DNA of 36,183 bases. Origin: a virus. Taxonomy: Duplodnaviria > Heunggongvirae > Uroviricota > Caudoviricetes. Each line of letters starts with the position of its first letter. The stretch's first letter is position 1. Positions 1 through 36,183 of this stretch are shown here, one piece after another. The notes under the pieces were generated by a model, which was given only the letters and a program-made list of their open reading frames with translations, searched no databases and was not told the DNA's origin. The translations under genes and the position numbers were made by a program. The stretch lies in IMG/VR virus record IMGVR_UViG_2737471857_000022. One strand, given 5' to 3'.

Positions 1-351
1 ATGCGAGGGACAGTCGAAATTATGCGTTATCCCGTCACTCTTACACCCGCGCCGGAAGGCGGTTATATGGTTTCTTTTGTGGATATCCCTGAAGCGTTGA
101 CGCAGGGCGAAACTGTCGCTGAAGCGATGGAAGCGGCAAAAGATGCTTTACTGACCGCATTTGATTTTTATTTTGAAGATAACGAGCTTATCCCTTTACC
201 TTCGCCATTAAATAGTCATGATCACTTTATTGAAGTGCCTTTGAGCGTCGCCTCTAAGGTATTGCTGTTAAATGCTTTTTTACAGTCAGAAATCACTCAG
301 CAAGAGTTAGCCAGGCGAATTGGCAAACCTAAATGTTGTAAACCCCAATAA
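1..351 (+). pseudogene. hicB: hicB-type antitoxin gene, 3'-truncated: HicB-like sequence for ~111 codons, then 5 foreign codons (CCKPQ) and stop
   Basis: ORF 1..351. Residues 8-111 (MRYPVTLTPAPEGGYMVSFVDIPEAL...ELARRIGKPK) match my recollection of enterobacterial HicB (N-terminal domain plus start of the C-terminal HTH). The frame diverges at nt 334 and stops at 349-351. Everything downstream is phage-like. Confidence 0.55.
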
Positions 352-372
352 CTAAAATTTTTGCAATAAAAA

Positions 373-395
373 AGCCCCATCACAAGGACAGGGCT
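373..395 (-). terminator. weak hairpin plus T-run downstream of the minus-strand ORF 415..720
   Basis: AGCCC/GGGCT stem (373-377 with 391-395); A-run 367-373 on + strand is a T-run on the minus strand. Confidence 0.3.
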
Positions 396-1017: not shown

Positions 1018-1578
1018 ATGAAAGAAGAATTAACCCTTACAGAAATTTCCCGCTTATACGGCTATACAATTAACGCCGCTAAGAAATGGCAAGAACGAGG
1101 AATGCCATTTAACACCAATACACGACGCGTACCGCTCAAGGAAGGGACCGAATGGATAGCAAAAAATATCATCAGTCCACTCAGGGAAACTACTGTCAAA
1201 GAACAAATCGACGTAGAGAAGTTACGCCGCGAGAGAGCATTAGCGGACGCAGCCGAACGAGAGAACCAGGAAGCAATGAATCTCCTGATTCCCGTCGGGT
1301 ATGTGGAGCAGGAGCTAGCGGAATACTGCGGGAAAGTGAAGCAGACTATTTTGCAGATCGCCACAATCGACGCTTTAGAAATTCTCGAATCTGCCACTGA
1401 CCAGAAAACATTGAAGAATAAGCTAAGGGAGATCATCGAGCGTCGTTTAAATGAAGTAGGGGACTTGTTCGAAAATGCAGATTTGGGAGAAGACGAGGAA
1501 GAAGAATTACCATTAATGGATGAACCGGAAGAACAAGAACAAGAACCAGAAGAAGACGATGAATTTGATGTGTCTTAA
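1018..1578 (+). CDS. Nu1-family HTH DNA-binding protein with acidic C-terminal tail; possible small terminase subunit
   Basis: N-terminus LTLTEISRLYGYTINAAKKWQERGMPF plus EKLRRE resembles lambda Nu1 winged HTH (recalled). 186 aa against Nu1 181 aa. GGAGG SD at 1003-1007. Not adjacent to the large terminase gene, so the role is uncertain. Confidence 0.6.
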   Translation: MKEELTLTEISRLYGYTINAAKKWQERGMPFNTNTRRVPLKEGTEWIAKNIISPLRETTVKEQIDVEKLRRERALADAAERENQEAMNLLIPVGYVEQELAEYCGKVKQTILQIATIDALEILESATDQKTLKNKLREIIERRLNEVGDLFENADLGEDEEEELPLMDEPEEQEQEPEEDDEFDVS

Positions 1579-1625
1579 AACGCGTTATAAATAAATGTAT
1601 GAAAGATGTTGATGGTCAACGTCTA

Positions 1626-1655
1626 CGGGGGATGTTCTCCCCCGCTTAACTTTTA
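1626..1655 (+). terminator. hairpin GGGGGA-TGTTC-TCCCCC with weak T tract
   Basis: Inverted repeat at 1627-1643 directly after the stop of CDS 1018..1578. Confidence 0.35.
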
Positions 1656-1670
1656 AGAGGATATAAAACT

Positions 1671-1955
1671 ATGGCTACTTTTATTACCTATGCTGTCATC
1701 ATTACTATTCTGGCAGTTATTTCTGCTTATAAACTCGGAACCGAAAATAGAGAACGTGCTGAATTATTCTTAGGTGCGTTTGTTGCATTTTCTAGTCTCG
1801 CGTTAATTGTCGAAGGAATTTCTTATATTGTTGGCCTAGTTAGTATGACACTTTTTAACTTCCATCCGGCTATTTCTATGCATCTACTGCTTACTGTATG
1901 CTGGGTATATTGCTTAATCGAATTTTTAACGTTTGTTTTCAAACAGACTAAATAA
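1671..1955 (+). CDS. small integral membrane protein (94 aa, about 3 hydrophobic helices)
   Basis: ORF with AAGAGG SD; strongly hydrophobic segments (ITYAVIITILAVISAY, FLGAFVAFSSLALIV, LLLTVCWVYCLIEFLTFVF). Confidence 0.55.
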   Translation: MATFITYAVIITILAVISAYKLGTENRERAELFLGAFVAFSSLALIVEGISYIVGLVSMTLFNFHPAISMHLLLTVCWVYCLIEFLTFVFKQTK

Positions 1956-2112
1956 TATTGTAATCTGCCATTTCTCCTTATGTGGTTTTAACAGGGGGCT
2001 TTCGAAAGAGAGTTCCCGGTTAAAAGCCATAAAACACATTCAGTACAGTGTTTTTCATAGTCAGTGACTATACAACATAAAAACATAACAAGTATAGATT
2101 GAGTATTAATCC

Positions 2113-2138
2113 TCCCGCCCTTCGGGGCGGTTATTTTT
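2113..2138 (+). terminator. rho-independent terminator (CCGCCC-TTCG-GGGCGG plus TTATTTTT)
   Basis: Perfect GC stem with UUCG tetraloop followed by a T tract. Confidence 0.7.
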
Positions 2139-2217
2139 CTGGCTTTACTAGATAATGTAGCATTATGTTCATTATAAATCCTCATCTTTGTTGTGCAAAC
2201 CTAACCTAAACTTACTA

Positions 2218-2243
2218 GGGACTCTTCGGAGTCCCTTTTTTTA
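2218..2243 (+). terminator. rho-independent terminator (GGGACTC-TTCG-GAGTCCC plus TTTTTTT)
   Basis: Perfect 7-bp stem, UUCG loop, 8 T. Second terminator about 80 bp after the first. Confidence 0.75.
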
Positions 2244-3182
2244 TTGGCAGTAAGAAAAGTTAGTACCGTACATTTCATCATGAAGCATTGCAGCATTGCG
2301 TTTCTGTTCTTCTTCCTCATCTTCTACATCACTAGAAAAATGAGATTTGCCCTTAAAAGAACGAAGTAATTGCAGTGCAGCCATCGGATCACGCATCACA
2401 TCGATTTTCACTTCTACTTCATCATTTGCGGCCTCATCAGCCGCGTTTTCAACTACTGCTACCGGAGCAACTTCTTTAGCTTTCAGTTCTTCAATCTCAG
2501 CTTTCTGTGCTTCGATAATCTGGTCTTTTTCTTCCAGTGCAGCTTTCAGTTCTGCGATCTGTGCTTCCAGTGCAGCAAAGCGATCTTCAACAACCGGAGA
2601 AACAGCATTCACCTGTGCTTCCAGTTCCAGAAATGCTTCGCAAGATTCAATACGTTCTTTCTCTTCACCTTCATAAGCAACCAGTTCTACAACTTCTTTT
2701 TCGGTAGCGTGGCTGTTAAAGAAAACAGCAAAGTAAGGATTGCCGGATTTAGTGAAGTTCAGTTTAGCTTTTCCGGTAACTTCTTTACGACGACCGAAGG
2801 TGATCTGGCAATCAGCGGTATCCTGAAAATCCATGTTAGGAGCGGAAACGATAGCAGTATCACCAGCAATAACCAGGTGGAACAGTTCAGAAGAGTTCTT
2901 AACGGTAAAAGTAACGATGTGGTCTACTGCAACGTCTTTAGCAGGTTTAACGCGGTCGATTGCTTTACGAATGCCGTTAGGCAGTTTACCGTCAACACCA
3001 AAGCCAGCCGCGATCAGTGCTTCACGATGTGCTTTAAAGCCAGCGAAGGCGGATTTCTGCTGCGCAAAGGAAACATGAGCAACAACTTTCGGCTGAATCT
3101 TCTTGTTTGCTTCGGTGCCAAATTTGATAACTGCTTTAGCGTTGGTTACTTCGTTAGTGAAAAAGTTAGCGGAAAATAACAT
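2241..3182 (-). CDS. hypothetical protein (313 aa) with central coiled coil and acidic C-terminus
   Basis: ORF with AGGAG SD 8 nt upstream; heptad-like EAQIAELKAALEEKDQIIEAQKAEIEELKAKE; no family recognised. Confidence 0.6.
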   Translation of the reverse strand: MLFSANFFTNEVTNAKAVIKFGTEANKKIQPKVVAHVSFAQQKSAFAGFKAHREALIAAGFGVDGKLPNGIRKAIDRVKPAKDVAVDHIVTFTVKNSSELFHLVIAGDTAIVSAPNMDFQDTADCQITFGRRKEVTGKAKLNFTKSGNPYFAVFFNSHATEKEVVELVAYEGEEKERIESCEAFLELEAQVNAVSPVVEDRFAALEAQIAELKAALEEKDQIIEAQKAEIEELKAKEVAPVAVVENAADEAANDEVEVKIDVMRDPMAALQLLRSFKGKSHFSSDVEDEEEEQKRNAAMLHDEMYGTNFSYCQ

Positions 3183-3295
3183 TATAAATACTCCTGTGGA
3201 AAGTTAGTTTTAATTGTTCATTTCAAGCCTCCTTTGCTGCAACAAGGGAGGCTTTTTCTTTTTTTAAAGCCATCATATAATTCTCAGTCAAAGTA

Positions 3296-3478
3296 TCAGT
3301 AAACCTCTGCGGTTATCTTTACTTTAATGTCATACTTCTTTAAGAGTTTATGAAAGGTTGATTTATCGATACCCTCATTTTTAAACCACTCTTCAATTCT
3401 CACACCCGGCGTTAACTCAAAGTAGCGTTTAGCCATTTCTAAGATGATTTCGCGAGTGAACTTAACAGGTCGTGCCAT
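3296..3478 (-). CDS. small HTH DNA-binding protein (60 aa), Hin/resolvase-type HTH-like
   Basis: AGGAGG SD 5 nt upstream; ARPVKFT...GIDKSTFHKLLKKYDIK resembles a GRPxK-type HTH; paralogous to CDS 6886..7113. Confidence 0.55.
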   Translation of the reverse strand: MARPVKFTREIILEMAKRYFELTPGVRIEEWFKNEGIDKSTFHKLLKKYDIKVKITAEVY

Positions 3479-3994
3479 CTCGAATCCTCCTACAATGTGG
3501 ATTAATGATTTCTTAAAAAAGAGCGTTAACCGCTCACTATTATTTATATGGGGATTGTATTTTATTTTTCAACCCCTCACATTTATCTCTTATATATGTA
3601 TTTACAACAGAGATATGTTAAAATGTTATTCAGATGTTATCAGGCGTGTTAAATGTGTTAAACCACAGCACGAATTGCTAAAGCGAAGAACACGATTTAA
3701 CCAAATTGATGTATATTCAATCAATTTAGAAAAAGGCATAGCACTTTTTGCTAAAGCGGTGAGCATTAATTGAGCTATGAATTGTAAAGATTTGTTACAA
3801 GATTTTCTCTCAGATCCAAATCTTCACAGACATATAACAATTTAACAGAAGGATAACAATAGGAAGGAAAATCGGTAAATTTTCACTTTCAATACAAATA
3901 TTATGACATATTTATCTCTAATTTTCAAGTATACCACTGTTCCTGCACAGTGTCAACAAAGGACTTTCAAACCTACACTAGCCCTACACTATGA

Positions 3995-4237
3995 AAATTG
4001 CCCCCGAATTTTTGCCCCTGAACCAAAATCCCCTAGATTTCACATCCCATTTTTGCCCCTGAAACCCACTATTTTTGCCCCTGAAATTCTGGGAAACAGT
4101 GATTTTGCCCCTTATTTTTGCCCCTGAAATGCCAATAATTGCCCCTGAAAATCTAATTTTTGCCCCTGAATTTTGCCCCTGAAAAGGATTTGTGAGAAAA
4201 ACTCTTTATAAAACATTAACTTAGTGAGGGGCAAAAC
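3995..4237. repeat. iteron array: at least 6 perfect and 3 degenerate direct copies of TTTTGCCCCTGAA plus one inverted copy
   Basis: Perfect copies start at 4010, 4051, 4073, 4116, 4158 and 4171. Degenerate copies near 3997, 4103 and 4139. Inverted copy GAGGGGCAAAA at 4225-4235. Confidence 0.85.
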
Positions 4238-4239
4238 AG

Positions 4240-4860
4240 GGAATCGGGCGTGCATAGATATTATATAACACATTCGCTACGCTCATGTGTAAAACCAAAA
4301 ACAACAAATAACCAAAAAGATATTAGGAGGGCGTAGCCCGACTGCGCGAAGCGCTAACCAATTACTTCTAGTAACACTAATTTAAACTAGATGATACTAG
4401 ATGGTCTTAGAAGGAATTAACTAGTTTGCTCGCTCGCTTCGCTCACTCTCAAACGTCTGCGACGCCACTGCGTGGCATCGAGAATCACTTCTGAAAGGAT
4501 TTTCTTGAAAGGGATTTTAAACTAGTTACTAACTGATTCTAGAAAGATAGTAATAATCACTTTGAAGATAATAGTAGTTAACTGGTTACTAGATGATTCT
4601 AGATCACTTTAATGATCATGAAAGGTATTGGTTATCCCTTCGGGATTGCAACCTTCGGTTGCTAAATTGCTTCCGGATTATTATTTCTCCAAAAGAAAGA
4701 TTCTTATATTCTAAAGATACTTCTTCGTTTTGATGATGATTTAATCAAAATCTATGAAGGAGGCGAAGCCGACTGAATACCAATTCCTTTCAAATTAGAC
4801 AAAAATTTCTCGTTATAAATAATAGTGTACTTTGTTTGATTCACTTTCTTTTAGAGGATT
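4240..4860. other. about 600 bp non-coding region with clustered ACTAG(A/T)T motifs and tandem UUCG-loop hairpins
   Basis: No ORF of 60 aa or more with an RBS. CTAG-containing motifs at 4366, 4387, 4396, 4420, 4521, 4537, 4588 and 4597. Hairpins at about 4458-4480, 4633-4645 and 4648-4663. Confidence 0.4.
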
Positions 4861-4866
4861 TCCACT

Positions 4867-5319
4867 ATGATCAATACTAAAACTCCTTTCATTCTTCTGG
4901 GTCTGAACCATGATGATAATCTGGCTATGATGCATGTTTTCGCTAATCGTGGTTATAACATCATTCGTCATTCCGAAGACTCCAATTTCTCAACTGCTTT
5001 CTATGCTCTTAAACGTAATGGTCGCCCTACGGTGATCGTAGACTGCTTTACTGATGAAGGTCGTGAACAATACAACAACATTCCGGCAATTATTGTTCGT
5101 GATGACCTGCCGTTTGATGTTCGTGAATATGACGTTGATTTAGGCTCTTACTATGGGATCGCCGATCTTGACCAGATTATGGCTGATTATGGTAAACAAC
5201 CCGCTCAGGAAGCCCCAGAACACGATGAACAAGACGAAGATGACGACGACTACGCACCAATCTGCTTCTCTTCTCAGAATGGCTTCTACGGTTACGATGA
5301 AGGCTTAGATATGCTGTAA
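4867..5319 (+). CDS. hypothetical protein (150 aa) with acidic C-terminal tail
   Basis: ORF with GAGGA SD; codon usage consistent with neighbours; no family recognised. Confidence 0.6.
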   Translation: MINTKTPFILLGLNHDDNLAMMHVFANRGYNIIRHSEDSNFSTAFYALKRNGRPTVIVDCFTDEGREQYNNIPAIIVRDDLPFDVREYDVDLGSYYGIADLDQIMADYGKQPAQEAPEHDEQDEDDDDYAPICFSSQNGFYGYDEGLDML

Positions 5320-5341
5320 GTTAGGTCAACCCTTTGGCGTC

Positions 5342-5383
5342 TTGTCAAGGGGTATTGACAAAATTTTCTGACTTTTTTATGAT
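5342..5383 (+). promoter_or_regulatory. sigma70-like promoter (TTGACA-17 nt-TATGAT) overlapped by palindrome TTGTCAA-N6-TTGACAA
   Basis: -35 at 5355-5360, -10 at 5378-5383, inverted repeat at 5342-5361; a further TTGACAA at 5392-5398. Confidence 0.45.
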
Positions 5384-5439
5384 TATCGCACTTGACAATT
5401 TTGAACCTATTTGACCTAGATTTGTAAAGAGGATGTAAC

Positions 5440-5772
5440 ATGAAAGAATTTACCATCACTAAATCCCTGTATGACTGGACTGTTAAAATCTCCGGCAAAA
5501 CCGTTTCTGTAAGCCCTAGCCATGTAGAAAATGATTGGGGCGTATCCCGTGAAACTATCTCCCGTAGTATGCATGTTCCGTTTGATCTGATGTCCTTAAC
5601 TGGTATTCATGCAATGCTGGAAGTTCGCGAACAATTCGAAGCTGGTAATCACAATGCGACTCCAGTTAGCAATCACCTTCTTACTAATGAAGAACGTGAA
5701 ATCATCGAAAACTGGCGTTATGAATATGCGATTCCTTATTATGAAGAAGATCAGGTAGAAATCGATTGGTAA
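5440..5772 (+). CDS. hypothetical protein (110 aa)
   Basis: ORF with AGAGGA SD; no family recognised. Confidence 0.6.
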   Translation: MKEFTITKSLYDWTVKISGKTVSVSPSHVENDWGVSRETISRSMHVPFDLMSLTGIHAMLEVREQFEAGNHNATPVSNHLLTNEEREIIENWRYEYAIPYYEEDQVEIDW

Positions 5773-5861
5773 TAAATTTCTATTATAAATAAAATTGTTC
5801 CGGTGGTGATGCCGGAACTAGGAGGACCAAATCATTAAACCGTTTAAGGGGAATTAATACT

Positions 5862-6737
5862 ATGAATACTGTTACTACTATGAATACTGCTAACGTTTCT
5901 TTTGATGCTTCTCTGACTGCCACAAAGAAAGAATGGCAAATCGATAAAACCGCTTCAATGTCTCTGGTTGTTGATAACACCAAACCGCTGACCATGTCTA
6001 CTTTGCAGATCGCGCAAATGATGGATCGCGTAGACCGCCACCGTGATATTAAGCGAACTGTTGACCGTCTCGTTTCTTCCGGTGTAATTGTCCACACGCC
6101 AACGGCGCGCGAACAACTGGAAGATAAATTTGGTCGTTCTCGTGAAATTGAAGTTTATCTTCTTGATGAACGTTCGTCATATATTGTTGTTGCTCAAATT
6201 TCGCCAGAATTTACCGCTTTTATCGTTGATGAATGGAAGCGACTGAAAGAAGAAAATGAAAAACTTCGCTCTACTCCTGTTAACCCGTATGCAGACTTTG
6301 AAGAAACAGACTGGATCGAACTGGCATTAGATGAAAAACGCAAAAATAAAAAACTGATTGAGCTACACATTCGCAAATCCGTAGATAGCCATTCTATGAC
6401 ACGTCTGTTAGGCGCTAAAAAGGGCGCTACGAAGGTTAAAGAAGCACTAACGGCCTTGCGTACTGCTGGCTACATTGAGCGCGTCTACGATGAAAATAAC
6501 AAGCCGTGTGGGTATGTTGCTAATGACTCTTCTCTGTCTTTCTGCCGCATGAATGCTCACTACCAACTTGAGTTTACTGTTGATGTTCTTCCGGTGCTGG
6601 TTGAATTGGGCGTTTTGGAAGAAGAACAGAAAGCAACTCTTAAACTACCGCAGCCAAATAACACTATTCTGATTCAAAATAAAGCGGCTGAACGTCTCCG
6701 CCAGAATGTTGGATCACTGGAAGTCTTCGGACTGTAA
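5862..6737 (+). CDS. Rha-like phage regulatory protein / antirepressor-type protein (291 aa)
   Basis: Segment LTMSTLQIAQMMDRVDRHRDIKRTVDRL resembles the Rha-family N-terminal motif (recalled); AAGGGG SD. Confidence 0.5.
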   Translation: MNTVTTMNTANVSFDASLTATKKEWQIDKTASMSLVVDNTKPLTMSTLQIAQMMDRVDRHRDIKRTVDRLVSSGVIVHTPTAREQLEDKFGRSREIEVYLLDERSSYIVVAQISPEFTAFIVDEWKRLKEENEKLRSTPVNPYADFEETDWIELALDEKRKNKKLIELHIRKSVDSHSMTRLLGAKKGATKVKEALTALRTAGYIERVYDENNKPCGYVANDSSLSFCRMNAHYQLEFTVDVLPVLVELGVLEEEQKATLKLPQPNNTILIQNKAAERLRQNVGSLEVFGL

Positions 6738-6844
6738 TTAATTTTTAGCCTCGCCTCGTGCGGGGCTTTTTCATACCTACATCACGCGACTTTTCGCGCC
6801 ATCTTCCACCAACCCGCCGATGGCGTTTTGGACACCCTACAGAT

Positions 6845-6870
6845 ACAAAAAAGCCACTCCGAAGAGTGGC
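6845..6870 (-). terminator. rho-independent terminator for the minus-strand operon 7754 to 6886
   Basis: GCCACTC-TTCG-GAGTGGC hairpin; A6 on + strand is T6 downstream on the minus strand. Confidence 0.65.
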
Positions 6871-6885
6871 AAAGAGAATCAAAAC

Positions 6886-7113
6886 TCAAAAACCTGTTGC
6901 TTCTACGATCTGACCATCACCGATCTGAACATAGAATTTAATGTCTAACTTCTTCATATTCTTATAGAATTGGGCGATTGAGATCCCATGTTCACTAAGA
7001 ATCTGTTCTTTCGCTTCCTTACCACGATCCGCTGTATAATAAGCGTAGGCAATATCAGCCATCTGTTCAGCGTTAAAACGGGCAGGGCGACCGCGAGTAG
7101 CTTTAGTAGTCAT
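6886..7113 (-). CDS. small HTH DNA-binding protein (about 75 aa from the second ATG; ORF opens with GTG at 7146)
   Basis: RGRPARF...GISIAQFYKNMKKLDIK HTH, paralogous to CDS 3296..3478; GGAG SD suits the ATG at 7113. Confidence 0.5.
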   Translation of the reverse strand: MTTKATRGRPARFNAEQMADIAYAYYTADRGKEAKEQILSEHGISIAQFYKNMKKLDIKFYVQIGDGQIVEATGF

Positions 7114-7148
7114 AGTCATTTTCTCCAAATTAAAGTGAATGTTCACCT

Positions 7149-7754
7149 TTATTTAGAGGACTTACATTTTATCGGAAAAAGTTCTTCATCGTCAATACTC
7201 ATAAAGAACTCTGCCTTAATCCCGTACTTCTTCAACCGTGAATAGTATGTACCCCGACTTATATCAACCTTGCGAAGCACTTCAAAGAACCCTTTAGGAT
7301 CGTTGTAATAGTGGCTATAACGCACGTTAGCGAGTTCAACGAATAGTTCCCTTGTATCACCATAGCCTTTCTTGAAAGCCTCGTTACGATAGCGTGTAAT
7401 TGCGTGATTCAATCTCTTCTGTTTCAACACTTCCCTGATCGGTGTCCACTGCAACCGATAGATAGGACCGTCATCAATGCGATAATAACGCTTGATATCA
7501 AAATCAAACCAATCTCGGACTCTCCGAAACTCTGTATGTGATGTTCTATGCTTCTTAAAGAAGTTGTGAACGTCTGTATAACCATTATCGCGGTAAAACT
7601 CTATTAAAATCTCTTTCGCTTCCTCACGACTAAAGCCAGATGTTGTGTAGTCGGTTTTTAAATGCTTATGCTTAACTGGCAAACGATATTCATGATCGGT
7701 ACAACAAGACAAGGCTAATTCTACTTCATCTCTTTGTTGCTGATTAATTAGCAT
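7149..7754 (-). CDS. hypothetical protein (201 aa) with C-terminal HTH related to the two small HTH proteins
   Basis: AAGGGGG SD 5 nt upstream; C-terminal [16 protein letters not shown] matches the HTH motif of 3296..3478 and 6886..7113. Confidence 0.6.
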
Positions 7755-15686: not shown

Positions 15687-18600
15687 ATGCAATCAATCCA
15701 ATTTAAACGAACTAATGTTTCTGGCAAAAAACCAACGCCGGAACAATTACAGGTCGGTGAGGTAGCAATCAACCTTAAAGACCATGTTATTTTTACCAAA
15801 GACCGAGATCATGAAGTAGTTCAAATCTCTGTTTCTCCTGAAACTCACGCGGCACTAGAATCTAAAGTTGATGCTAACAAACAAGAACTAGATAGCACAA
15901 TTGCAGTAAATGACCGCAATATTCACGCTAAAGTAGATGAAATTAAACAAACTACTGATGCAACCATCGCAGCAAATCACGCAGAAATTAACAATAAAGT
16001 TGATGTAATTAAACGCGAAACCGACGCGACAATCGAGGCCAATAAAAATAAAGCTGCTTCCGACCTTGCTGGTGTTAAAGCTGAATTGTCGGATACCATC
16101 AACGCTAATAAAAATGCGGCTGCTGTAGCAACTCAGGAACTGGACACCCGCATCAATAAAAAAGTTGATGATATTAAATCCCGCACCGATGCAACCATCG
16201 CAAGCAATGACAAAGCAATCAATGACAAGGTTGATTTGATTAAGGCAGAAACTGACCGCACTATCGCAGCAAATAAAGTCTATGCGGAAAATCAGTTAAC
16301 TGACACCTACAATAACCTTACTGGTGTGATTGCAGCCAATAAGCAAGAGGCAGCGGATAACGTCGCAGCATTAACCCGTGATGTTGAAGCCAAAAATACA
16401 GCAATTCATAGCAAAATTGACAACAACAAGGTTTACACTGATTCTGAATTGGCACGCTTAGAAAGCCGTATTGATGCAGCCGATGGATCTGCTGATGGCA
16501 AGTACATCAAAAAACACGTAAACACTTATACTGATGGTTATTTGCTGTCTAAGACCGCAAACTATTTTGATGATCCAAGTGCGCGTAATCTTGATTACTT
16601 TGGTGCATTCCGTATGAATGACCTAGCGGGTCATATTGCTTTAGCGTTACATGTTCCGCATCCATCCGGCGTTAATCATGCTCGTGGTTTTGAGTTCACT
16701 TATGGGTCTAATCCACATGCTACGGTAAGAACATACGGCTATGATGAATTGGGTCATTTGGCATATTCTCACCGCATGTATCATGAAGGTGATAAACCTA
16801 CTCCGGCTGAAATTGGCGCATATTCGAAAGCAGAAATTGACCGCCTGTTCCAGAAGACGCTTAATTTTGGTATCGAGGGCGGTTGGTTTAAACTAGGCAC
16901 TTTGACAATGCCACAGCAACACGGTCGCACCGCTAAGATCCGTTTGGTTGGTGGTAACGGTTATAACGTCGGGATGAATGGACAAGCCAATATTATCGAA
17001 TTGGTGATTCGATGCGGCAACAATAGCCCGAAAGGTGTTGTATTCAATGCTTATTATAGCATCTGGTATCACGAACAACATTTTTGTGCAATTCCTACCG
17101 ATGGTGATAATTACGATCTTTACGCTTACTATGGTGCACATACAGGATTTGTTTTAGCAGAATATCAAGTTTCTTCCGGTGGTGTTTCTTTAAACCTGTT
17201 GGATACTCCTGAATACCTGGGCGGTGAAAAACCTGTTGCAGATGAAATTTTTGATGCTCTTAACATTTCATCGTTCAATAACTTTAGCAACCGTGGAACG
17301 TTAAATTTTGGCGGAAACCATCAAGGCCAATATGATATTGAGCATTTGAACGAACAACAAACAAATGCTAAAAAGATGTTGCGTCGCTTCCGTAGTTCTG
17401 CTCCTGCCACTATCTGGCATGAAACTGTTGATGATAACGCATATCGTCTTGCTACTGGATACGAAGATACAAATCAGGAATTATTACTGACAGCAACAAC
17501 CGGATTACATATCAAGAAATTAACATTGGATGGCGGTGTTGGTGGAAATTCTGGTATTGATATTCGTCGAGGACCAAATGAAGCAAGCCATTTTAATTTC
17601 ATGGATTATCGCACTGGTCAAGATGTTCGTAATGGCTGGTTTGGTTTTGGTGACGGTCAGACGAAAGATTTTATTTGGTGGAACGATAACGGTCAAAACT
17701 CAATCAACCTGATCGAAAACGGTGAATTGCATATTACTGGTGGTAAAGGCCAGAAAATTGTAATGAATAGCGAAGTTGCATTGTCTGAAAATGCTCGTTT
17801 GGCTGTCAAAGGCGGTAACTATGGTTTGATTTTACGCAATGATGGTTCTGGTTTCCATATTCTTACTACCAATTTAAAAGATTCTTTTGGTAGTTGGAAT
17901 AATCGCAGACCATTCAGTTATGATTTTGCGGACGGTGGATTATATTTAGGTGGTACTGAAACCGCTCGGTGTTTACATCTGGGGATTGATGGTAGCACTC
18001 GTCTTGAAGACAACCTGTTCTTTAAAGCTGGTTCTCGTCAATCTATGGACTATATGGAACTCGTCCATTGGGGGGCAAGCAATACAGGTCGAAATAACGT
18101 TTTAAGTCTTCGTGACTCAAAAGGATTTTTCGCAGAATTTGAAAGATTGGGTGATAATACCATTAAAAACTCCTTCTTTGGTAAACTTAAAATTAATCGC
18201 GGATCTGATGCAATTATCATGAATGCCGAAAGTGGTGATTCTTCTGTATATTTGTTGGGTACGTGTGCTGATAACAATAATTGGTATATCGGTAAAGGCG
18301 GCGCTGATAATGGATTGGCGTTCTATAGTTATGCTACTAATGCTGCTGTAAACATTACAAACGCGGGGGATATCGCTCTAAGTCCAAAAGGCATCGAAAT
18401 GACTCATGTCAATAACGTTCGATTCTATGTTCATGGTGAACGTTGGACTGCTAGCCAATCTGGAGGTTGGAACGACCAGTGGGGATTAGAAGCGCCGATA
18501 TTTGTCGATCATGGTTATGTTTCACCGGACTGTTATTACCCAATTATTAAAGGAAGAAGTTTAATCACCAATCAAGGGTATACAACTGCCGTCGATTTTG

Positions 18601-19097
18601 GTCTGCGTCGTGTTCCTAATGCATGGGGACAAGCAATTATTCGCGTTGGATCTGCGGAGGCATCGCCAGCGGCTGGTCATCCTCAAGCTGTATTCGAGTT
18701 CCATCATGATGGTACTTTTTACTGTCCTGGTAATGGTAACTTTAACGATGTTTATATTCGTTCCGATCGTCGTCTGAAAATTAATGTTGAAGATTACGAA
18801 GAAAATGCGGTGGATAAGGTAAATAAACTCAAAGTTAAAACCTACGATAAAGTTAAATCTCTTAATGACCGAGAAGTTATAGGTCATGAGATTGGTATTA
18901 TCGCACAGGATTTACAAGAGGTATTACCGGAAGCTGTTAAAACCGCAAAAATTGGTGGTTTTGATAACCCAGAAGAAATTTTAACAATTTCAAACTCCGC
19001 AGTGAACGCGCTTTTAATTAAAGCGGTCCAAGAAATGAGCGAAGAAAATAAACTTCTTCGTGAACGTCTTGCTGCAATTGAAGCTAAATTAGGGTAA
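15687..19097 (+). CDS. side (L-shaped-type) tail fibre with C-terminal intramolecular chaperone domain, T5 pb1-like (1136 aa)
   Basis: Four about 22-aa repeats (xIxxKVDxIKxxTDATIxAN) at aa 77-200. C-terminal 110 aa (YIRS/DRRLK...GIIAQDLQEVLPEAVK...NSAVNALLIKAV) resemble the S74-type chaperone of T5 pb1 and endosialidases (recalled). Confidence 0.85.
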   Translation: MQSIQFKRTNVSGKKPTPEQLQVGEVAINLKDHVIFTKDRDHEVVQISVSPETHAALESKVDANKQELDSTIAVNDRNIHAKVDEIKQTTDATIAANHAEINNKVDVIKRETDATIEANKNKAASDLAGVKAELSDTINANKNAAAVATQELDTRINKKVDDIKSRTDATIASNDKAINDKVDLIKAETDRTIAANKVYAENQLTDTYNNLTGVIAANKQEAADNVAALTRDVEAKNTAIHSKIDNNKVYTDSELARLESRIDAADGSADGKYIKKHVNTYTDGYLLSKTANYFDDPSARNLDYFGAFRMNDLAGHIALALHVPHPSGVNHARGFEFTYGSNPHATVRTYGYDELGHLAYSHRMYHEGDKPTPAEIGAYSKAEIDRLFQKTLNFGIEGGWFKLGTLTMPQQHGRTAKIRLVGGNGYNVGMNGQANIIELVIRCGNNSPKGVVFNAYYSIWYHEQHFCAIPTDGDNYDLYAYYGAHTGFVLAEYQVSSGGVSLNLLDTPEYLGGEKPVADEIFDALNISSFNNFSNRGTLNFGGNHQGQYDIEHLNEQQTNAKKMLRRFRSSAPATIWHETVDDNAYRLATGYEDTNQELLLTATTGLHIKKLTLDGGVGGNSGIDIRRGPNEASHFNFMDYRTGQDVRNGWFGFGDGQTKDFIWWNDNGQNSINLIENGELHITGGKGQKIVMNSEVALSENARLAVKGGNYGLILRNDGSGFHILTTNLKDSFGSWNNRRPFSYDFADGGLYLGGTETARCLHLGIDGSTRLEDNLFFKAGSRQSMDYMELVHWGASNTGRNNVLSLRDSKGFFAEFERLGDNTIKNSFFGKLKINRGSDAIIMNAESGDSSVYLLGTCADNNNWYIGKGGADNGLAFYSYATNAAVNITNAGDIALSPKGIEMTHVNNVRFYVHGERWTASQSGGWNDQWGLEAPIFVDHGYVSPDCYYPIIKGRSLITNQGYTTAVDFGLRRVPNAWGQAIIRVGSAEASPAAGHPQAVFEFHHDGTFYCPGNGNFNDVYIRSDRRLKINVEDYEENAVDKVNKLKVKTYDKVKSLNDREVIGHEIGIIAQDLQEVLPEAVKTAKIGGFDNPEEILTISNSAVNALLIKAVQEMSEENKLLRERLAAIEAKLG

Positions 19098-30927: not shown

Positions 30928-31281
30928 ATGTTAAGTAAGCATTTTTCTCGCAAGGAATTTAAATGTAAATGCGGAAAATGTGATTATGATACAATCGACG
31001 CTGAATTACTGGTAATTCTTGAGGATGTACGAGAACACTTCGGTAAACCAGTGATTATTAACAGTGGCAACCGTTGCCCGGCTCATAACAAGAATGTAGG
31101 CGGGGCAACCAACAGCTATCACGTTCGAGGCCGTGCGGCTGACATTGTGGTCAAGGGTGTCTCCCCTGATATTGTCCATGCTTATCTTGATGGGAAATAT
31201 CCTACTCAATACGGCTTAGGAAAATATAAAACCTTTACGCATATTGATTCCAGATCAAAAAAATCACGGTGGAATGGATAA
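30928..31281 (+). CDS. endolysin, zinc peptidase M15 family (117 aa)
   Basis: SGNRCPAHNKNVGGATNSYHVRGRAADIVV ... FTHID gives a His/Asp/His metal-ligand pattern typical of M15 peptidases; TAAGGGGGTAAT SD. Confidence 0.75.
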   Translation: MLSKHFSRKEFKCKCGKCDYDTIDAELLVILEDVREHFGKPVIINSGNRCPAHNKNVGGATNSYHVRGRAADIVVKGVSPDIVHAYLDGKYPTQYGLGKYKTFTHIDSRSKKSRWNG

Positions 31282-31287
31282 AATTAA

Positions 31288-31311
31288 AGCGCCTCTAGTG
31301 GGCGCTTTTTT
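31288..31311. terminator. bidirectional terminator between convergent genes
   Basis: AGCGCC-TCTAGTG-GGCGCT with T6 on + strand and an A/T tract on the other side. Confidence 0.65.
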
Positions 31312-31312
31312 G

Positions 31313-31894
31313 TTAGAATATGCTGGCGACGTTAGCTATATTTCTGACCATTTTTTCATTATAAACAAACGTTTCTGTAGCACCTTCTTTAATATCAAAA
31401 TCACCTTTTACTAGGTTTTTCTTGATAAACAATTCTGCCGCGTATGCGTCTTTTTCGTCTTGAAATTCGAAAGTCTCGATGATATCAAATTTCATCTTAT
31501 TCTGGCATCTTAGCTTATGTTTTCTCGTCAACACATTGTGACTTACTCCAACCTTACCCACATCACCACACCGCATAACATATAATACTGGTTGCCCATT
31601 TTTATATTTGTTGTCATATTTGCTACGATTACACGGGCACACAGTAGGATTATGTAAGAATTGTTTTGCTGTTATATCTCTGATTCTTGCGCAGCTTTCA
31701 CACTCTAGCACAATACGGCTATTGATTGATTTATACTCACCTTTGAATCCGTGATAAATCAAGGGTAAACCCTCGTTTTCAATACGGGTCACGATCCTTG
31801 CTTCCATATCAATTGGATGTGATGGCGCTTTGCCATTTTTGGTGCGGATAAAATTGAACGGGATATCACATGCTTTGCGCACATCATTCATCAT
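31313..31894 (-). CDS. zinc-ribbon plus GIY-YIG-like (T5orf172-type) domain protein (about 193 aa from ATG 31894; ORF opens at GTG 31906)
   Basis: CESCARIRDITAKQFLHNPTVCPC then PVLYVMRCGDVGKVGVSHN..R..H; paralogous to CDS 32423..33421; GAGG SD. Confidence 0.55.
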   Translation of the reverse strand: MMNDVRKACDIPFNFIRTKNGKAPSHPIDMEARIVTRIENEGLPLIYHGFKGEYKSINSRIVLECESCARIRDITAKQFLHNPTVCPCNRSKYDNKYKNGQPVLYVMRCGDVGKVGVSHNVLTRKHKLRCQNKMKFDIIETFEFQDEKDAYAAELFIKKNLVKGDFDIKEGATETFVYNEKMVRNIANVASIF

Positions 31895-31934
31895 AAAAAA
31901 CCTCACTTAATTTATCTTATAGGCATTACCTTTA

Positions 31935-32387
31935 ATGTTGATGATCGAGTTCGTAGAAACCGAATTAACTAAACTGGCTTCCGAAATGGAAGAAGAAACT
32001 CCGGCAGAAGGAACCAGTATTAACGATCTTATTCTGGCAGCAGACACCGCAGATGATAAAGTGATATTCGACGAAGTTGATCCGTCTCTGGTTGAAGCAA
32101 TGAAAGAACCTGAGATCGCCATTGAAGAAACAAAAGAAGAATCTCCAGCAGTTGAACCAGTGGTCGAAGAAGTTAAGTCAGATGTTGAAGAAGCACCGGA
32201 AGTTAAAGTGGAATCTCCGGTAGCCAACATTTTCTCTAACGAAGCAGAACATCGTTCCCCAGCACATGACACTGATTCATTTTGCGATCTTACTGGCTTC
32301 CGTCCGACCATTTGCTTGATCGGTGGCGGTCGTGGTTACTACTCCTGCCCGTGGTCTTCAACCATTACAACAAATTTTTCTCAATAA
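31935..32387 (+). CDS. acidic low-complexity protein (150 aa); existence uncertain
   Basis: Glu/Pro/Val/Ala-rich ORF with host-like codon usage but no clear SD; the antisense ORF 31907..32311 is an alternative reading. Confidence 0.35.
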   Translation: MLMIEFVETELTKLASEMEEETPAEGTSINDLILAADTADDKVIFDEVDPSLVEAMKEPEIAIEETKEESPAVEPVVEEVKSDVEEAPEVKVESPVANIFSNEAEHRSPAHDTDSFCDLTGFRPTICLIGGGRGYYSCPWSSTITTNFSQ

Positions 32388-32422
32388 ATAGTAGTGAACT
32401 TATTATTTTCGAGGACACTAAT

Positions 32423-33421
32423 ATGAATACTACTTTAGCAAAGGATATCGAATTTACCGCAAAAAGCAAACGTGCGACCCCTCCGGTCGAATATGAAACC
32501 AGAATCATTAAAGTTTGTCAAGCGCATGGATGGTTATACAGTGGTTTTGTGCTTCCTGTAAAGAAACCATTCCAGAACACCAAAGTTTGCATAGAAGTTA
32601 ACGGAAAGGTTAAAACGCCATGTATTAGTCATGTTCTAACTGGTCAGTTTACTGGCAAAGATAGAGTATCACCGCCTAAGAAGAAGTTTAGATTTACCGA
32701 AGAAGAACACTTAGAAAACGCTCGCAAGTTCTACAAGCCGATAGGGTGGGATGTGTTAGGTCTGGCTGAACCTTATCAGGGTGTTGACACTAAACTAATT
32801 CTTCGTTGTAAGTGCCACGGAAAGATTCACAAGAAAGGTGATTTACACAATAACCGCAGACAAGGCGGGTTAACATGCCCTTTGGTTAGGGGTGTACTTA
32901 AATCAATTCAGAATGGTAGAAAACAGGTTATCAGAAACAAGTTTGCACAGCGCCCTATGCACTTTTATCTAATTCGTGTTGGCGAGAAGTTTTTCAAATA
33001 TGGAATTACCACTCGCAAAGATCCGATGCAACGGGTAAGAGAACACCAGAAGCACACCAGCGAGAAAATCACCTTTGAATGCTCACATTTGTTTAACATT
33101 GGATGGAAAGCTGGTGATTTAGAAATGGGGATTAAAAAGAATATTCAGGGCAAGAAAATCCCACGTAAGGTAATGAATAGCGGATTCACAGAAACGCTAC
33201 CGATTAGCAAGCTGAAAGATGTTAAATCATTCATCAATGAATACATCCACACCAACCCATCTAAGCCAATGTATTTTGATGATACCAACGCAATCAATCT
33301 GAACAACTACATTAGTGATGAAGACATAGAACGAGATTTATCGCAGTGGATGAATGCACCGTTAGCTGATTTAACACCGGAAAACTTAGAACTCGATTTA
33401 AGCCCTTTAGAGGCTCTCTAA
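32423..33421 (+). CDS. zinc-ribbon plus GIY-YIG-like (T5orf172-type) domain protein (333 aa from ATG 32423)
   Basis: GAGGA SD 7 nt upstream; LRCKCHGKIHKKGDLHNN...LTCP then MHFYLIRVGEKFFKYGITTR...R.REH; paralogue of 31313..31894. Confidence 0.6.
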   Translation: MNTTLAKDIEFTAKSKRATPPVEYETRIIKVCQAHGWLYSGFVLPVKKPFQNTKVCIEVNGKVKTPCISHVLTGQFTGKDRVSPPKKKFRFTEEEHLENARKFYKPIGWDVLGLAEPYQGVDTKLILRCKCHGKIHKKGDLHNNRRQGGLTCPLVRGVLKSIQNGRKQVIRNKFAQRPMHFYLIRVGEKFFKYGITTRKDPMQRVREHQKHTSEKITFECSHLFNIGWKAGDLEMGIKKNIQGKKIPRKVMNSGFTETLPISKLKDVKSFINEYIHTNPSKPMYFDDTNAINLNNYISDEDIERDLSQWMNAPLADLTPENLELDLSPLEAL

Positions 33422-33494
33422 CGCAATTAAATTCAAAAGGGGTACGAATGTACCCCTTAACTGTTTTAGCTCGTTATACGTCGATTTAGGCCGC

Positions 33495-35174
33495 TTAAAT
33501 TCCAAATTCCTGTAATGGACCTGATATTTCCTCTTCTGGTTTCCAGTTCTTATCTGTCAGCATGTCTAAACATGGATGCAAAACAAGCCCGTTACTTTCC
33601 AGAATCTGTCTATCATTGATAGTTTTCAAATCAACGAAGATCCGGCCTTTCCTCGGTCCTCTTGAATTTTCTATTACAACTCTCTGGGTCTTGCCATCGA
33701 TGTATTCCAGTACAAACAAGTTTTTGTACTTGTCAATCCTGCTACACCCGATCCGTTTTAGAGCTTGCTTAATCTTAAACCGGACCTTAATGCGATCCTC
33801 GTTGTAAACATCTTCTAAATCAAATTCTGCGAGCTTCTCCCAGCCTTGAGAGTCAACAGAATACATTTCCTCTTCTGCCATCTTGATCTGATTGTAGAGT
33901 GTTTCACGCTCGCTATTGAGGGTAGTAATCTGATCGGCTAGTTCCTTCGTTGCTCCTGTCATAGCAGAAAGGGCAATCAGGTTATCAATCTTGCGTGATA
34001 TCTCATCAACCTGTACTTTCAACGCCGGAACCGGATTAGCCTTATCCTCAGCAATCCAGATTTTATCAGCCAGCAATTGCAATACAGCTTTCTCTAATTG
34101 ATCACCTCGAAAACTCCAGTTTGTATGCACACATGCAATACGACTAGAGCGCATTGCATCGCATGAATAACGATATTGGTTAGGACGTTTGTTAGTTCCT
34201 TTCACCTTAACCATAGCGGAACCGCAATGTTCACATTTCAATAGACCAACACCACTAAGCAAGGGAATAGGTTTAACTTCTTCCTTGTCTCCATAGTTAC
34301 ATGCTCTAACACCAATGCTTTTCTTAAGGTGATAAAACTCAGCGTCATCTAGCACACGAGGATAATAATCCTTTAACTCATACTTAACGCCATCTACAGA
34401 GATTTCCTTGATACCAATCAAAGCGCGGGTATGGAACAACCTTTCAATCATTGCCCGTGACCAGTTTGAATGCCTCTTGTGACTTGCGGCTGGTGGTGGT
34501 GTGTATGTCGCGTTAAGGTGATCCAGTATCTCGGCGGTTGACCGTCCATTCCTGCGTAATTCCACAACTTCCTGAACAATAGGGAAGAAGACCGGATGAG
34601 GAAGCACATAACCAGATGTGGTATCAGTCCACCACATATTCTTTCCAATTTCCTCGATTGCAACAGCCGGATTTTGTGGATTTTCTTGATGAGCTTTAAT
34701 CTTAATCAATGCGCTTGAGTTAGTACGATTGCGCTTAGTCTGACTTTCCTCGTTAGCTCTCGCAAACAACATGACACTCAACAGCAAATCAATAGGATTG
34801 GCATTAACCGATTCCTTGCTATAGACCTTACCATCCATGCCAGTTACGATAGTTATTCCCCTACGGATAATCGAGAGAAATAGCTCTTGTGCTTCAATGA
34901 TGGATTGGCGAGAGATACGGTCTAAGTTTTCCACAACCAGCCAGCTACCAACCGGAACGGATCGACCAATCTCATCCAGAAAGCGAGATAGTGCACCTGT
35001 TCTACTGTTAGCCCCTTTGAATGCAGATACACCAAAATCCTGATAGCTTGTAACTAGCTCAAGATCATATTTTGCGGCTATCTCTGCGGCTGTTCTCTTC
35101 TGGCGTTCATAAGAACTACCATCCGCTTGCTTCATAGACGAGAAGCGAATATACGAATACAGTTTAGTTTTCAT
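33495..35174 (-). CDS. large serine recombinase (phage integrase), about 559 aa from ATG 35174
   Basis: N-terminal resolvase motifs YIRFSSMKQ, SYERQ, LVVENLDRISRQ; zinc ribbon CEHCGSAMV...YSCDAMRSSRIAC; C-terminal coiled coil. Confidence 0.85.
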   Translation of the reverse strand: MKTKLYSYIRFSSMKQADGSSYERQKRTAAEIAAKYDLELVTSYQDFGVSAFKGANSRTGALSRFLDEIGRSVPVGSWLVVENLDRISRQSIIEAQELFLSIIRRGITIVTGMDGKVYSKESVNANPIDLLLSVMLFARANEESQTKRNRTNSSALIKIKAHQENPQNPAVAIEEIGKNMWWTDTTSGYVLPHPVFFPIVQEVVELRRNGRSTAEILDHLNATYTPPPAASHKRHSNWSRAMIERLFHTRALIGIKEISVDGVKYELKDYYPRVLDDAEFYHLKKSIGVRACNYGDKEEVKPIPLLSGVGLLKCEHCGSAMVKVKGTNKRPNQYRYSCDAMRSSRIACVHTNWSFRGDQLEKAVLQLLADKIWIAEDKANPVPALKVQVDEISRKIDNLIALSAMTGATKELADQITTLNSERETLYNQIKMAEEEMYSVDSQGWEKLAEFDLEDVYNEDRIKVRFKIKQALKRIGCSRIDKYKNLFVLEYIDGKTQRVVIENSRGPRKGRIFVDLKTINDRQILESNGLVLHPCLDMLTDKNWKPEEEISGPLQEFGI

Positions 35175-35193
35175 ACCATTTCCAAACAAAAAC

Positions 35194-35223
35194 GCCCCTA
35201 CCGCGTATTATAACGATAGGGGC
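35194..35223 (-). promoter_or_regulatory. inverted repeat GCCCCTA-N16-TAGGGGC directly upstream of the integrase start
   Basis: 7-bp arms with a TATTATAA-containing loop; followed on the minus strand by GTTTTTGTTT, so it may also terminate the upstream small gene. Confidence 0.4.
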
Positions 35224-35239
35224 ATTGGTTAGTAAGTCA

Positions 35240-35485
35240 TTAATATTTCTTTCCAGTTAGTTTTGCATCACGTTTATTAATATCCTCGATATGACTCCAT
35301 ACACACGCAGTAATAAAGTCGTCATCGTCACCAACTCCGGCAACCTGTGCTAATTCAGTACACAGTTGATTTAAAGAAGGTGCAACGGCAGCACGTTTGA
35401 CACTATCACCCTGTACATATTGTTCGGCATTCGCAGCACCAACCAAACCCAGAGCAAGAACGATACCAGCGATAATCTTTTTCAT
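35240..35485 (-). CDS. small secreted protein (81 aa) with cleavable signal peptide
   Basis: MKKIIAGIVLALGLVGAANA/EQ is a typical Sec signal with AxA site; AAGAGGA SD; two Cys in the mature part. Confidence 0.6.
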   Translation of the reverse strand: MKKIIAGIVLALGLVGAANAEQYVQGDSVKRAAVAPSLNQLCTELAQVAGVGDDDDFITACVWSHIEDINKRDAKLTGKKY

Positions 35486-35530
35486 AGTAGAATTTCCTCT
35501 TGTTATTTGAATTACGATATATTTATATCG

Positions 35531-35656
35531 TTAAAAATTGATGCTAATTACCAGACCAAACACAACCGCACCAATCAAATCAATCCAGTTAATACACAAT
35601 CCGCTATATTCTTTCTTGAATGTCTTGGATGAAATGCCATCATGAAATTGTTTCAT
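35531..35656 (-). CDS. possible 41-aa membrane peptide (MKQFHDGISSKTFKKEYSGLCINWIDLIGAVVFGLVISINF)
   Basis: Found by reading (below the ORF-track cut-off); GGGGTGAG upstream; single C-terminal hydrophobic helix. Confidence 0.3.
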   Translation of the reverse strand: MKQFHDGISSKTFKKEYSGLCINWIDLIGAVVFGLVISINF

Positions 35657-35756
35657 TGCTCACCCCATACTAACGACAATATAAGAAAGACTAATCATGG
35701 TTGTGAGACTACCTCCCACGAATGAGATAAAAGCTAACATGTTTGATTCTCCATTT

Positions 35757-35782
35757 AAAAAGCGGTGGGAATTGCACCCACC
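35757..35782 (-). terminator. terminator for the minus-strand gene 36183 to 35797
   Basis: GGTGGG-AATTGCA-CCCACC hairpin with A5 on + strand (T5 on minus). Confidence 0.5.
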
Positions 35783-35796
35783 AAATTAGAAATTAA

Positions 35797-36183
35797 TTAA
35801 GCGCGAACGATGGTCAGAGTATCCAGCAAACCTTTTTCGTATAATTCGAAACACGTTTTATATTGCTCAATCTGGAAACCATAGCGGGTGATCTTATTCA
35901 GTAGAATAATCACGGTATTCTCATCTAGGTATTGTCCTTGCTTACCAATTACATATGACTCGCGGGATAGTCTCAGCTTACGGAAACCTTTAACACCTAA
36001 TTCCTTAGCCACCGCTTTAATCTCTTTAATCTCACCCTCAGCAGCTACATATTCAGCGTCGATAATCTCAGGTGATGATCTCAGTGCTACCAGAACTAAG
36101 GCCATTGCTTCTTCTTCGGTACGAGCAACACCAGCTTTCTCGAAAGTCATCTCGCCAAATTTACGAATCATGATATTGAACAT
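35797..36183 (-). CDS. hypothetical protein, at least 128 aa; start at or beyond the window edge
   Basis: ORF runs to the last base of the window; no family recognised. Confidence 0.5.
   Translation of the reverse strand: MFNIMIRKFGEMTFEKAGVARTEEEAMALVLVALRSSPEIIDAEYVAAEGEIKEIKAVAKELGVKGFRKLRLSRESYVIGKQGQYLDENTVIILLNKITRYGFQIEQYKTCFELYEKGLLDTLTIVRA

Follow-up and report, generated by a model that had tools for sequence, protein, structure and literature searches.

The window, as we call the whole 36,183-nt stretch of DNA analysed here (IMG/VR record IMGVR_UViG_2737471857_000022), is an Escherichia coli prophage of about 35.9 kb inserted within the host gene hicB. Its integrase gene, int, encodes an intact large serine recombinase (LSR). 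Very probably, this enzyme recombined a phage attachment site (attP) of about 54 bp with a site in hicB at the dinucleotide AA, which gave the left junction (attL) at 299-352 and a right junction (attR) about 43 nt outside the window, and its recombinase domain (RD) and zinc ribbon (ZD) pick the site.

The longest open reading frame (ORF) of int runs from 33495 to 35189 on the minus strand and opens with TTG, the earliest possible start. The true start is almost certainly the ATG at 35174, since MKTKLYSY or MTKLYSY opens all homologues and RefSeq has the same 1680-nt gene in sister prophages. A preliminary description of this stretch had placed a large serine recombinase at 33495-35232, more than 1 kb from the window edge. 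The gene and its distance from the edge were confirmed (1009 nt from start codon to window end), but the upper limit was not, as 35232 takes in 58 nt of leader and hairpin. The protein matched the Pfam models Resolvase (PF00239, 7.6e-15), Recombinase (PF07508, 1.4e-07) and Zn_ribbon_recom (PF13408, 6.8e-10), each above the gathering score, as well as PHROG 95 ‘integrase’ (1.2e-55). NCBIfam gave no equivalog; the XisF match of 50.8 bits was far under the 375-bit cutoff. Among 22 aligned homologues, the most distant at 34% identity, the residues R10, S12, Q16, D46, G48, S50, D85, R86, R89, R139 and E143 were invariant, as were the zinc-ribbon cysteines C314, C317, C338 and C348. The YIRFS12S motif aligned with YTRVST of 3GUV, the active-site serine motif of a solved resolvase-family domain. 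With its catalytic residues intact in this alignment, the enzyme gives no sign of being catalytically dead and would be expected to be active.

Because a PDB sequence search with the integrase gave the 3GUV resolvase N-domain as its sole match, confirmation of the family needed a fold search. In the AlphaFold2 (AF2) model (pLDDT 77) we observed a catalytic domain, a long alpha-E helix (127-164), a mixed alpha/beta domain (196-291), a zinc ribbon, and an additional, mostly beta C-terminal region of about 90 aa. Long antiparallel helices at 382-406 and 410-438 are predicted to form a coiled-coil motif emerging from the zinc ribbon. The approximate domain limits are 1-140 for the catalytic domain (with Ser12), 141-195 for alpha-E, 196-290 for RD, 306-370 for ZD, 371-470 for the coiled coil and 471-559 for the extra beta-rich region. 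The top 17 PDB fold matches were large serine integrases throughout (E 5e-14 to 2e-3), including a serine integrase-RDF (recombination directionality factor) complex, PhiC31, the Listeria LI integrase (4KIS) and TP901-1; the recombinase domain matched 4BQQ and 4KIS, and the structural alignments to the integrase chains 9dxf and 9rah were full-length, at about 586-639 columns.

The Pfam scan covered ORFs judged plausible genes, of at least 150 aa over the window and smaller ones in 415-7754 and 30928-36183 only. Neither a tyrosine integrase nor an excisionase was found among these ORFs or in the PGAP annotation of four sister prophages, and a second integrase between 36183 and attR is effectively excluded, because 43 nt is too short. 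The earlier proposal that integration proceeds without a tyrosine integrase is therefore upheld at both prophage ends.

The window starts with the 5' part of hicB, and both hicB parts are contiguous in K-12. In the alignment to K-12 hicB, the sequence was identical up to base 333 and diverged thereafter. The resulting hybrid ORF consists of host hicB at 1-333, of which the final 9 bases are common with the phage, and of phage-derived codons at 334-351 (..GKPK-CCKPQ*). The same remnant in sister lysogens carries the PGAP label ‘missing C-terminus’ and is called a pseudogene. In the 99.2% identical sister prophage of ETEC1717, the hicB 3' fragment begins 37 nt past the equivalent of 36183 and is followed by ydcR, and the crossover (attR) lies 43-44 nt beyond the base matching window position 36183. 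The attR past the window end would thus read CATTGTTGTACCCCCTCGTGTTATTGTGGGGGCATTATATTAGGG-AA-ACCTAAACAGGAG, followed by the hicB 3' end and ydcR. An intragenic target, an attR outside the window and minus-strand genes continuing to 36183 had all been anticipated in the preliminary description; the split hicB and the ETEC1717 copy agree with the first two, and the last minus-strand ORF has its ATG exactly at 36183.

The 2.9 kb around int matched 58 of 5426 complete E. coli genomes, and the match was chromosomal in every case. With the int region, a plasmid search and a megablast against 50,697 phage records returned no match, and the closest terminase match among sequenced phages was 43%. The hicB attL junction was present in 37 of the complete genomes, while in about 5286 the junction query matched by its host (hicB) half alone, which is what an unoccupied hicB site would give.

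The crossover was located by comparing the junctions of the sister prophages, whose classes are described below. In class A, the window type, attL and attR have a common core of 9 nt, AAACCTAAA (window 325-333), and host identity in attR resumes at AAACCTAAA. Class B prophages in hicB have different phage arms, and their attL and attR have only GGCAA in common with the host. Since AAACCTAAA and GGCAA on the same hicB site overlap on AA alone, the crossover was assigned to AA 325-326. The exchange is also limited to AA in class C, inside ycdX, because the host reads GGA-AA-TCCC and the phage GGG-AA-CCCT. The shared cores are 9 nt in class A, 5 nt in class B, 2 nt in class C and 4 nt in a more distant type inside codB. 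The reconstructed attP is an imperfect palindrome, GTTATTG...TTAGGG-AA-CCCTAA...AATAAC, and its dyad score peaks on AA (14, 18 and 18 of 26, with 3-12 at neighbouring centres). The dyad symmetry of the bacterial site (attB) is weak, 7-11 of 24; a first dyad scan of attB gave other centres, and attB symmetry was not used. This combination of short identity, dyad attP and 2-nt exchange point is characteristic of serine integrases. From these comparisons we infer the exact position of cleavage.

The classes were defined by the first 1080 nt of int relative to the window. Class A prophages (97-100% identical, 9 genomes) and class B prophages (87-89%, 21 genomes) are in hicB, and class C prophages (81-82%, 24 genomes) are inside ycdX. 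The codB type is a more distant relative with 77% identity. A Salmonella relative (73%) sits beside ycdY/csgG, in ycdX, with the junction TTAGGG-AA-TCC as in the ycdX type. Among the 5426 complete E. coli genomes the ycdX junction was counted in 27, and further sister prophages were found in codB. All 24 class C genomes had the ycdX junction, and all 9 class A genomes the hicB junction.

The integrases of these classes differ domain by domain. Between A and B, both in hicB, identity was 78% in the N-terminal domain (NTD), 100% in RD and 97% in ZD. Between B (hicB) and C (ycdX), it was 98.6% in NTD, 82% in RD and 80% in ZD; the two proteins are 92% identical, and 33 of their 43 differences fall in aa 196-351. 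The integrase of FDAARGOS_1267 has an A-like NTD and a C-like RD, and its prophage sits in ycdX: compared with A (hicB) this ycdX allele was 98% identical in NTD, 80% in RD and 78.5% in ZD, and compared with C (both ycdX) 79%, 88% and 81.5%, respectively. Given these domain identities and the agreement between class and junction, the target tracks, at the level of sequence, the recombinase and zinc-ribbon domains (aa 196-370), independently of the catalytic-domain allele. This is as predicted from the known division of labour in LSRs. Three blocks (attP with NTD; RD-ZD; coiled coil with C-terminus) have evidently been reshuffled by recombination among prophages. Closely related LSRs with divergent targets were already noted in large-scale mining (PMC10083194); the retargeting phenomenon is known, and this clade is a tidy example of it. 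The series amounts to natural retargeting between hicB and ycdX, with codB as the choice of a third cassette, and could pinpoint specificity residues. The genomes NZ_CP063332.1 (BS74R-D) and NZ_CP157110.1 (UTME-9) carry two prophages of the lineage each, one in hicB and one in ycdX, so different target cassettes allow double lysogeny. Integrases of this clade are frequent in Escherichia, Shigella and Salmonella, and Edwardsiella, Enterobacter, Klebsiella and Citrobacter hold more distantly related ones; in databases, all bear just the label ‘recombinase family protein’.

A promoter-like site spans the reconstructed attP. On the minus strand of the class A attP it reads TTTACA-18 nt-TATAAT and scores 11/12, which was reached or beaten by 8 of 2000 shuffles. 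Its -10 hexamer TATAAT lies in the P arm, about 30-35 nt past the window end, and the site faces the gene of a 128-aa protein with its ATG at 36183. The corresponding sites are TTGACT-17-TATCAT in classes B and C and TTGACC-16-TATCAT in the codB type. In the four attP versions the sites score 11/12 and 10/12 and face the adjacent gene, with the -10 outside the window. In the attR of classes A and C, host sequence replaces the -35 and leaves 2-3/6, the best attR site overall scoring 8/12; in the attR of classes B and D, none of the listed sites retains the attP -10. A hairpin at 366-395 is predicted to stop minus-strand transcripts ahead of attP. Tentatively, integration may split a sigma-70 promoter, in which case the 128-aa gene, and perhaps int by read-through, would be transcribed from the circular genome only, and the 128-aa product would be a candidate establishment or directionality factor. 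If so, integrase bound at attP would also cover the promoter. We make no claim that this promoter drives int, because two hairpins (35783-35763 and 35226-35191) stand between them.

The promoter-like sequence might well be a by-product of AT-rich integrase-binding motifs, without promoter function. Its -10-like element coincides in part with a conserved P-arm motif, ATATTAGG, that the integrase probably reads, and the individual shuffle frequencies are about 0.04-0.06 for types B, C and D. However, in each of the four attP versions the site is the best on either strand, and it is always oriented toward the adjacent gene, its spacer staying legal (16, 17 or 18 nt) despite the differing core. 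Moreover, the other arm holds no mirror image of the -35, whose half of the site decays in attR wherever it can be traced (classes A and C). These features argue against such a by-product.

Several observations weigh against integration at AA by the window's own LSR. The attR and P arm sequences come from sister genomes and not from the window's own genome. The dyad symmetry of the class A attP is just 14/26, and the att geometry is not uniform in the family: the codB-type attL, with core GGCA, is symmetric about CA (17/26) and not AA, which ruled out AA as the central dinucleotide of every type. Exact-pattern scans of IMG/VR found no intact class A or class B/C attP, and a degenerate attP pattern found none in JGI metagenome contigs; because these scans were empty, the excised form is undocumented. 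Many sister prophage copies are damaged by insertion sequence (IS) elements or deletions, and the lineage may often be immobile. Finally, a promoter scan found none at threshold between the strong terminator described below and int, so that int expression is unexplained.

One could accordingly regard the recombinase as a passenger or decayed gene and this prophage copy as a fixed remnant unable to excise or integrate. No attP-bearing contig was found in the viromes or metagenomes scanned, several sister prophages are visibly defective, and genes for repression, replication or excision were not recognised in the window. We consider this unlikely, since int of the window is full-length with all invariant residues, its terminase, portal and capsid genes are intact, and the three insertion sites with precise LSR-type junctions, together with the double lysogens, show repeated integration by the lineage. 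A sizeable share of the lineage is probably defective. Sister prophages carry IS1 and IS3 insertions, and among them are a terminase gene cut short and an int that is truncated and joined to ynfF by a deletion (loci L003 20319-21016, L015 44336-45483, L005 9986-10618 and L014 5040-6798).

Immediately upstream of int, a 14-pair stem (7 G-C) with an 8-nt loop is followed by GTTTTTGTTT. It begins 14 nt past the stop of the gene at 35240-35485 and ends 17 nt ahead of the int ATG, and its RNA fold has an energy of -23.7 kcal/mol (z -3.87). Types A-D do not differ in the hairpin or in the first int codons, even when the upstream gene is replaced. At the same position, Salmonella has a shortened hairpin followed by TTTTTTATTT, and FDAARGOS_1267 an unrelated GC-rich hairpin with a T-run. 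Since structure and T-tract are conserved rather than sequence, the element would be a terminator insulating int and not an operator; its likeliest role is that of a Rho-independent terminator that closes the preceding gene and shields int. A 7-bp-arm repeat at 35194-35223 had been proposed earlier to regulate int. The repeat is present, its arms GCCCCTA (35223-35217) and TAGGGGC (35200-35194) being the core of the 14-pair stem, but the operator role gives way to a terminator, with a weak promoter in the loop as a possibility. That the repeat is a protein-binding operator controlling int is improbable: it is a perfect inverted repeat directly upstream of int, invariant in types A-D, and contains TATAAT, so that a bound protein could occlude a promoter, but the longer stem, the T-tract, the placement just past the upstream stop codon and the substitute hairpins in FDAARGOS_1267 and Salmonella all fit a terminator.

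The TATAAT in the terminator loop is a candidate -10 of a weak int promoter, with a candidate -35, TTACTA, at 35235-35230 and a 17-nt spacer. The Salmonella loop also has TATAAT, with TTCACC 17 nt upstream, and TATAAT thus occurs in two of the three hairpin versions; the candidate scores under the promoter-scan threshold. A transcript from this promoter would escape termination because it would lack the 5' stem arm. Expression of int would probably be low and would come either from read-through or from this weak promoter.

In the host, the N-terminal domain of E. coli HicB neutralises HicA, and the C-terminal helix-turn-helix (HTH) region binds DNA and dimerises (PMC11594946). The insertion swaps the last 40 HicB residues for the 5 phage-derived ones, cutting the HTH, and leaves hicA intact (L005 4488-5021). 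Judging from the hybrid ORF, a lysogen has likely lost HicB autoregulation and retained HicA neutralisation, and lysogeny may alter the regulation of this toxin-antitoxin pair.

Table 1. Positions of int, the attachment site and neighbouring features in the window.
Feature	Position	Strand	Basis
Hybrid hicB ORF	1..351	+	Pfam HicB_lk_antitox 5.7e-08; K-12 alignment
attL: B arm 299-324, probable crossover dinucleotide AA 325-326, P' arm 327-352	299..352	+	Junction comparisons
Candidate -35 hexamer TTTACA of the promoter-like site spanning attP	337..342	-	Promoter scoring of reconstructed attP
Terminator-like hairpin and T-run after gene 415-720: GCCCTGTCCTTGTGATGGGGC then TTTTTTATT	366..395	-	Read from sequence
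101-aa ORF, P' side of attP in the circular genome	415..720	-	No Pfam, PHROG or NCBIfam match
Bidirectional terminator-like hairpin between the 3' ends of int (-) and ORF 32282-33421 (+)	33437..33458	.	9-pair stem on both strands
Large serine recombinase (integrase), 559 aa	33495..35174	-	Pfam, PHROG, alignment, AF2 model, fold search
Probable intrinsic terminator of gene 35240-35485; stem 35226-35191, then GTTTTTGTTT	35181..35226	-	Terminator scan, RNA fold
TATAAT in terminator loop, candidate -10 of a weak int promoter	35207..35212	-	Read from sequence
81-aa ORF with N-terminal hydrophobic segment, read as signal peptide	35240..35485	-	ORF list; no family match (Pfam, PHROG, NCBIfam)
Terminator-like hairpin after the 128-aa gene: 7-pair stem, then CTTTTTAAAT	35763..35783	-	Terminator scan
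128-aa protein, first gene downstream of attP	35797..36183	-	PHROG 14908, unknown function

Of the genes between attP and int, only the 128-aa gene is conserved across all variants, Salmonella (53%) among them. The AF2 model of its product has a pLDDT of 83, and a recognisable RDF or DNA-binding fold was rejected: there was no informative family match, and none of the PDB fold matches had an E below 0.24. The protein is a positional candidate for an accessory or directionality factor. Homologues of 128-145 aa are named ‘type I 3-dehydroquinate dehydratase’ or ‘beta/alpha barrel domain-containing protein’ in databases, and neither name is supported by family scans or the predicted fold. Excision would need a directionality factor. 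None was recognised by Pfam, PHROGs, NCBIfam or the fold search, as the initial reading of the sequence had found; the outcome is unsurprising, as RDFs are conserved in neither sequence nor synteny (PMC12286644).

The other small genes around attP vary. The 101-aa ORF is 98% identical in the ycdX-type prophage. An extra gene of 90-91 aa lies between attP and the 128-aa gene in classes B and C and in Salmonella (L003 3098-3370; L006 2311-2583; L007 4713-4988) and is absent in the window type; the Salmonella 91-aa protein shows a faint resemblance (25% identity, E 0.009) to the 101-aa ORF in its C-type copy. A ribosome-binding region, GAGGGGGTACAACA-ATG, precedes the first gene after attP in classes A-C, and the leader of the codB type is different. 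The slot upstream of int is variable and moron-like, with 81 aa versus 137 aa (L006 3329-3742): the N-terminus MKKIIAG.VLALGLVGAANA is kept and the mature part is swapped.

Elsewhere in the prophage, the paralogous ORFs at 31313-31906 (-) and 32282-33421 (+) adjoin int and match PHROG 681 ‘endonuclease’, one of them also matching the CapR domain. This slot varies among sisters, with UvsW- and UvsY-like genes in Salmonella and codB-type relatives, and it may hold homing-endonuclease-like or defence cargo. The tail-fibre gene at 15687-19097 (+) is 80-93% nucleotide-identical to the long-tail-fibre distal-subunit genes of T-even E. coli phages, which looks like recent horizontal transfer of a receptor-binding module; the remaining prophage, with its terminase of lambda gpA type, lambda-family portal and protease-capsid fusion, lacks close relatives among phages. 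The region 415-7754 has no recognisable repressor, replication or excision genes. It contains an Ant-like ORF (5862-6737) and an ORF resembling the terminase small subunit (1018-1578), about 6 kb from the large terminase gene. A C-terminal ‘..Y..LKKY.IK’ motif is common to the ORFs at 3296-3478, 6886-7146 and 7149-7754, possibly paralogues that encode small DNA-binding proteins.

Among sequenced phages, the nearest relatives of the integrase are Burkholderia JC1 gp1 and Bcep22-like serine recombinases, with 28-31% identity over 85% of the protein. JC1 stably lysogenises, integrating within the 5' end of rimO (PMC9144972), and the window integrase resembles JC1 gp1 in integrating inside a gene. 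JC1, however, is a Burkholderia podovirus with a reported overlap of 18 bp and with int 133 bp from attP, whereas in the window prophage int is about 1 kb from attP with three small ORFs between. Because the identity is far too low, the same site rules are not inferable from JC1. The integrase is like PhiC31, Bxb1-type, A118/LI and TP901-1 integrases in its domain order, catalytic Ser/Arg set, four-Cys zinc ribbon and coiled coil, and its att sites resemble those of characterised LSRs in being short, with a 2-nt crossover and little identity between attB and attP. It differs from characterised LSRs in showing 13-18% identity in the structural alignments and in having the extra C-terminal region (471-559).

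The Listeria comK prophage and the Anabaena XisF/fdxN element are LSR elements that interrupt coding sequence. SprA, described in PMC5499854, is the serine integrase of SPbeta, an element in spsM. Like these elements, the window prophage lies within coding sequence, and precise excision would restore the gene; unlike them, nothing in it suggests developmentally regulated excision. None of the interrupted genes (hicB, ycdX and codB) is essential, and the toxin-neutralising domain is still encoded by the 5' part of hicB. YbcK, an LSR-like protein of DLP12 and lambdoid phages from the same host species, is about 30% identical to the integrase over 80% of the protein. Lambdoid phages integrate by tyrosine Int, and ybcK is not known to be their end-of-prophage integrase. 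The window integrase, unlike YbcK, is the sole recombinase found, and its prophage has borders with LSR-type sites.

A literature search returned nothing relevant on hicB or ycdX as LSR attachment sites or on the enterobacterial clade. The integrase N-terminus and the att strings were not found in the parts of the Durrant et al. 2022 supplements covered, which does not prove absence from that catalogue. The clade is without a curated family model, and hicB, ycdX and codB are identified here as recurrent E. coli prophage sites. Serine integrases are valued genome-engineering tools, and ways of changing their site preference are still being worked out. Near-isogenic enzymes with three defined natural targets, in which domain and target correlate cleanly, make this clade a possible guide for swap or mutation experiments.

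Promoters that are assembled when element ends join and lost on integration are represented by ICEclc Pcirc and the IS911 and IS30 junction promoters. The candidate described here differs in two ways: an LSR attP would carry its -35 on one arm and its -10 on the other, under the integrase sites, and the gene that it would drive encodes the 128-aa protein and is not demonstrably int. None of these findings overturns current understanding. The integrase is an ordinary member of a known enzyme class, and the added value lies in its att sites, the domain-to-target correlation and the candidate split promoter.

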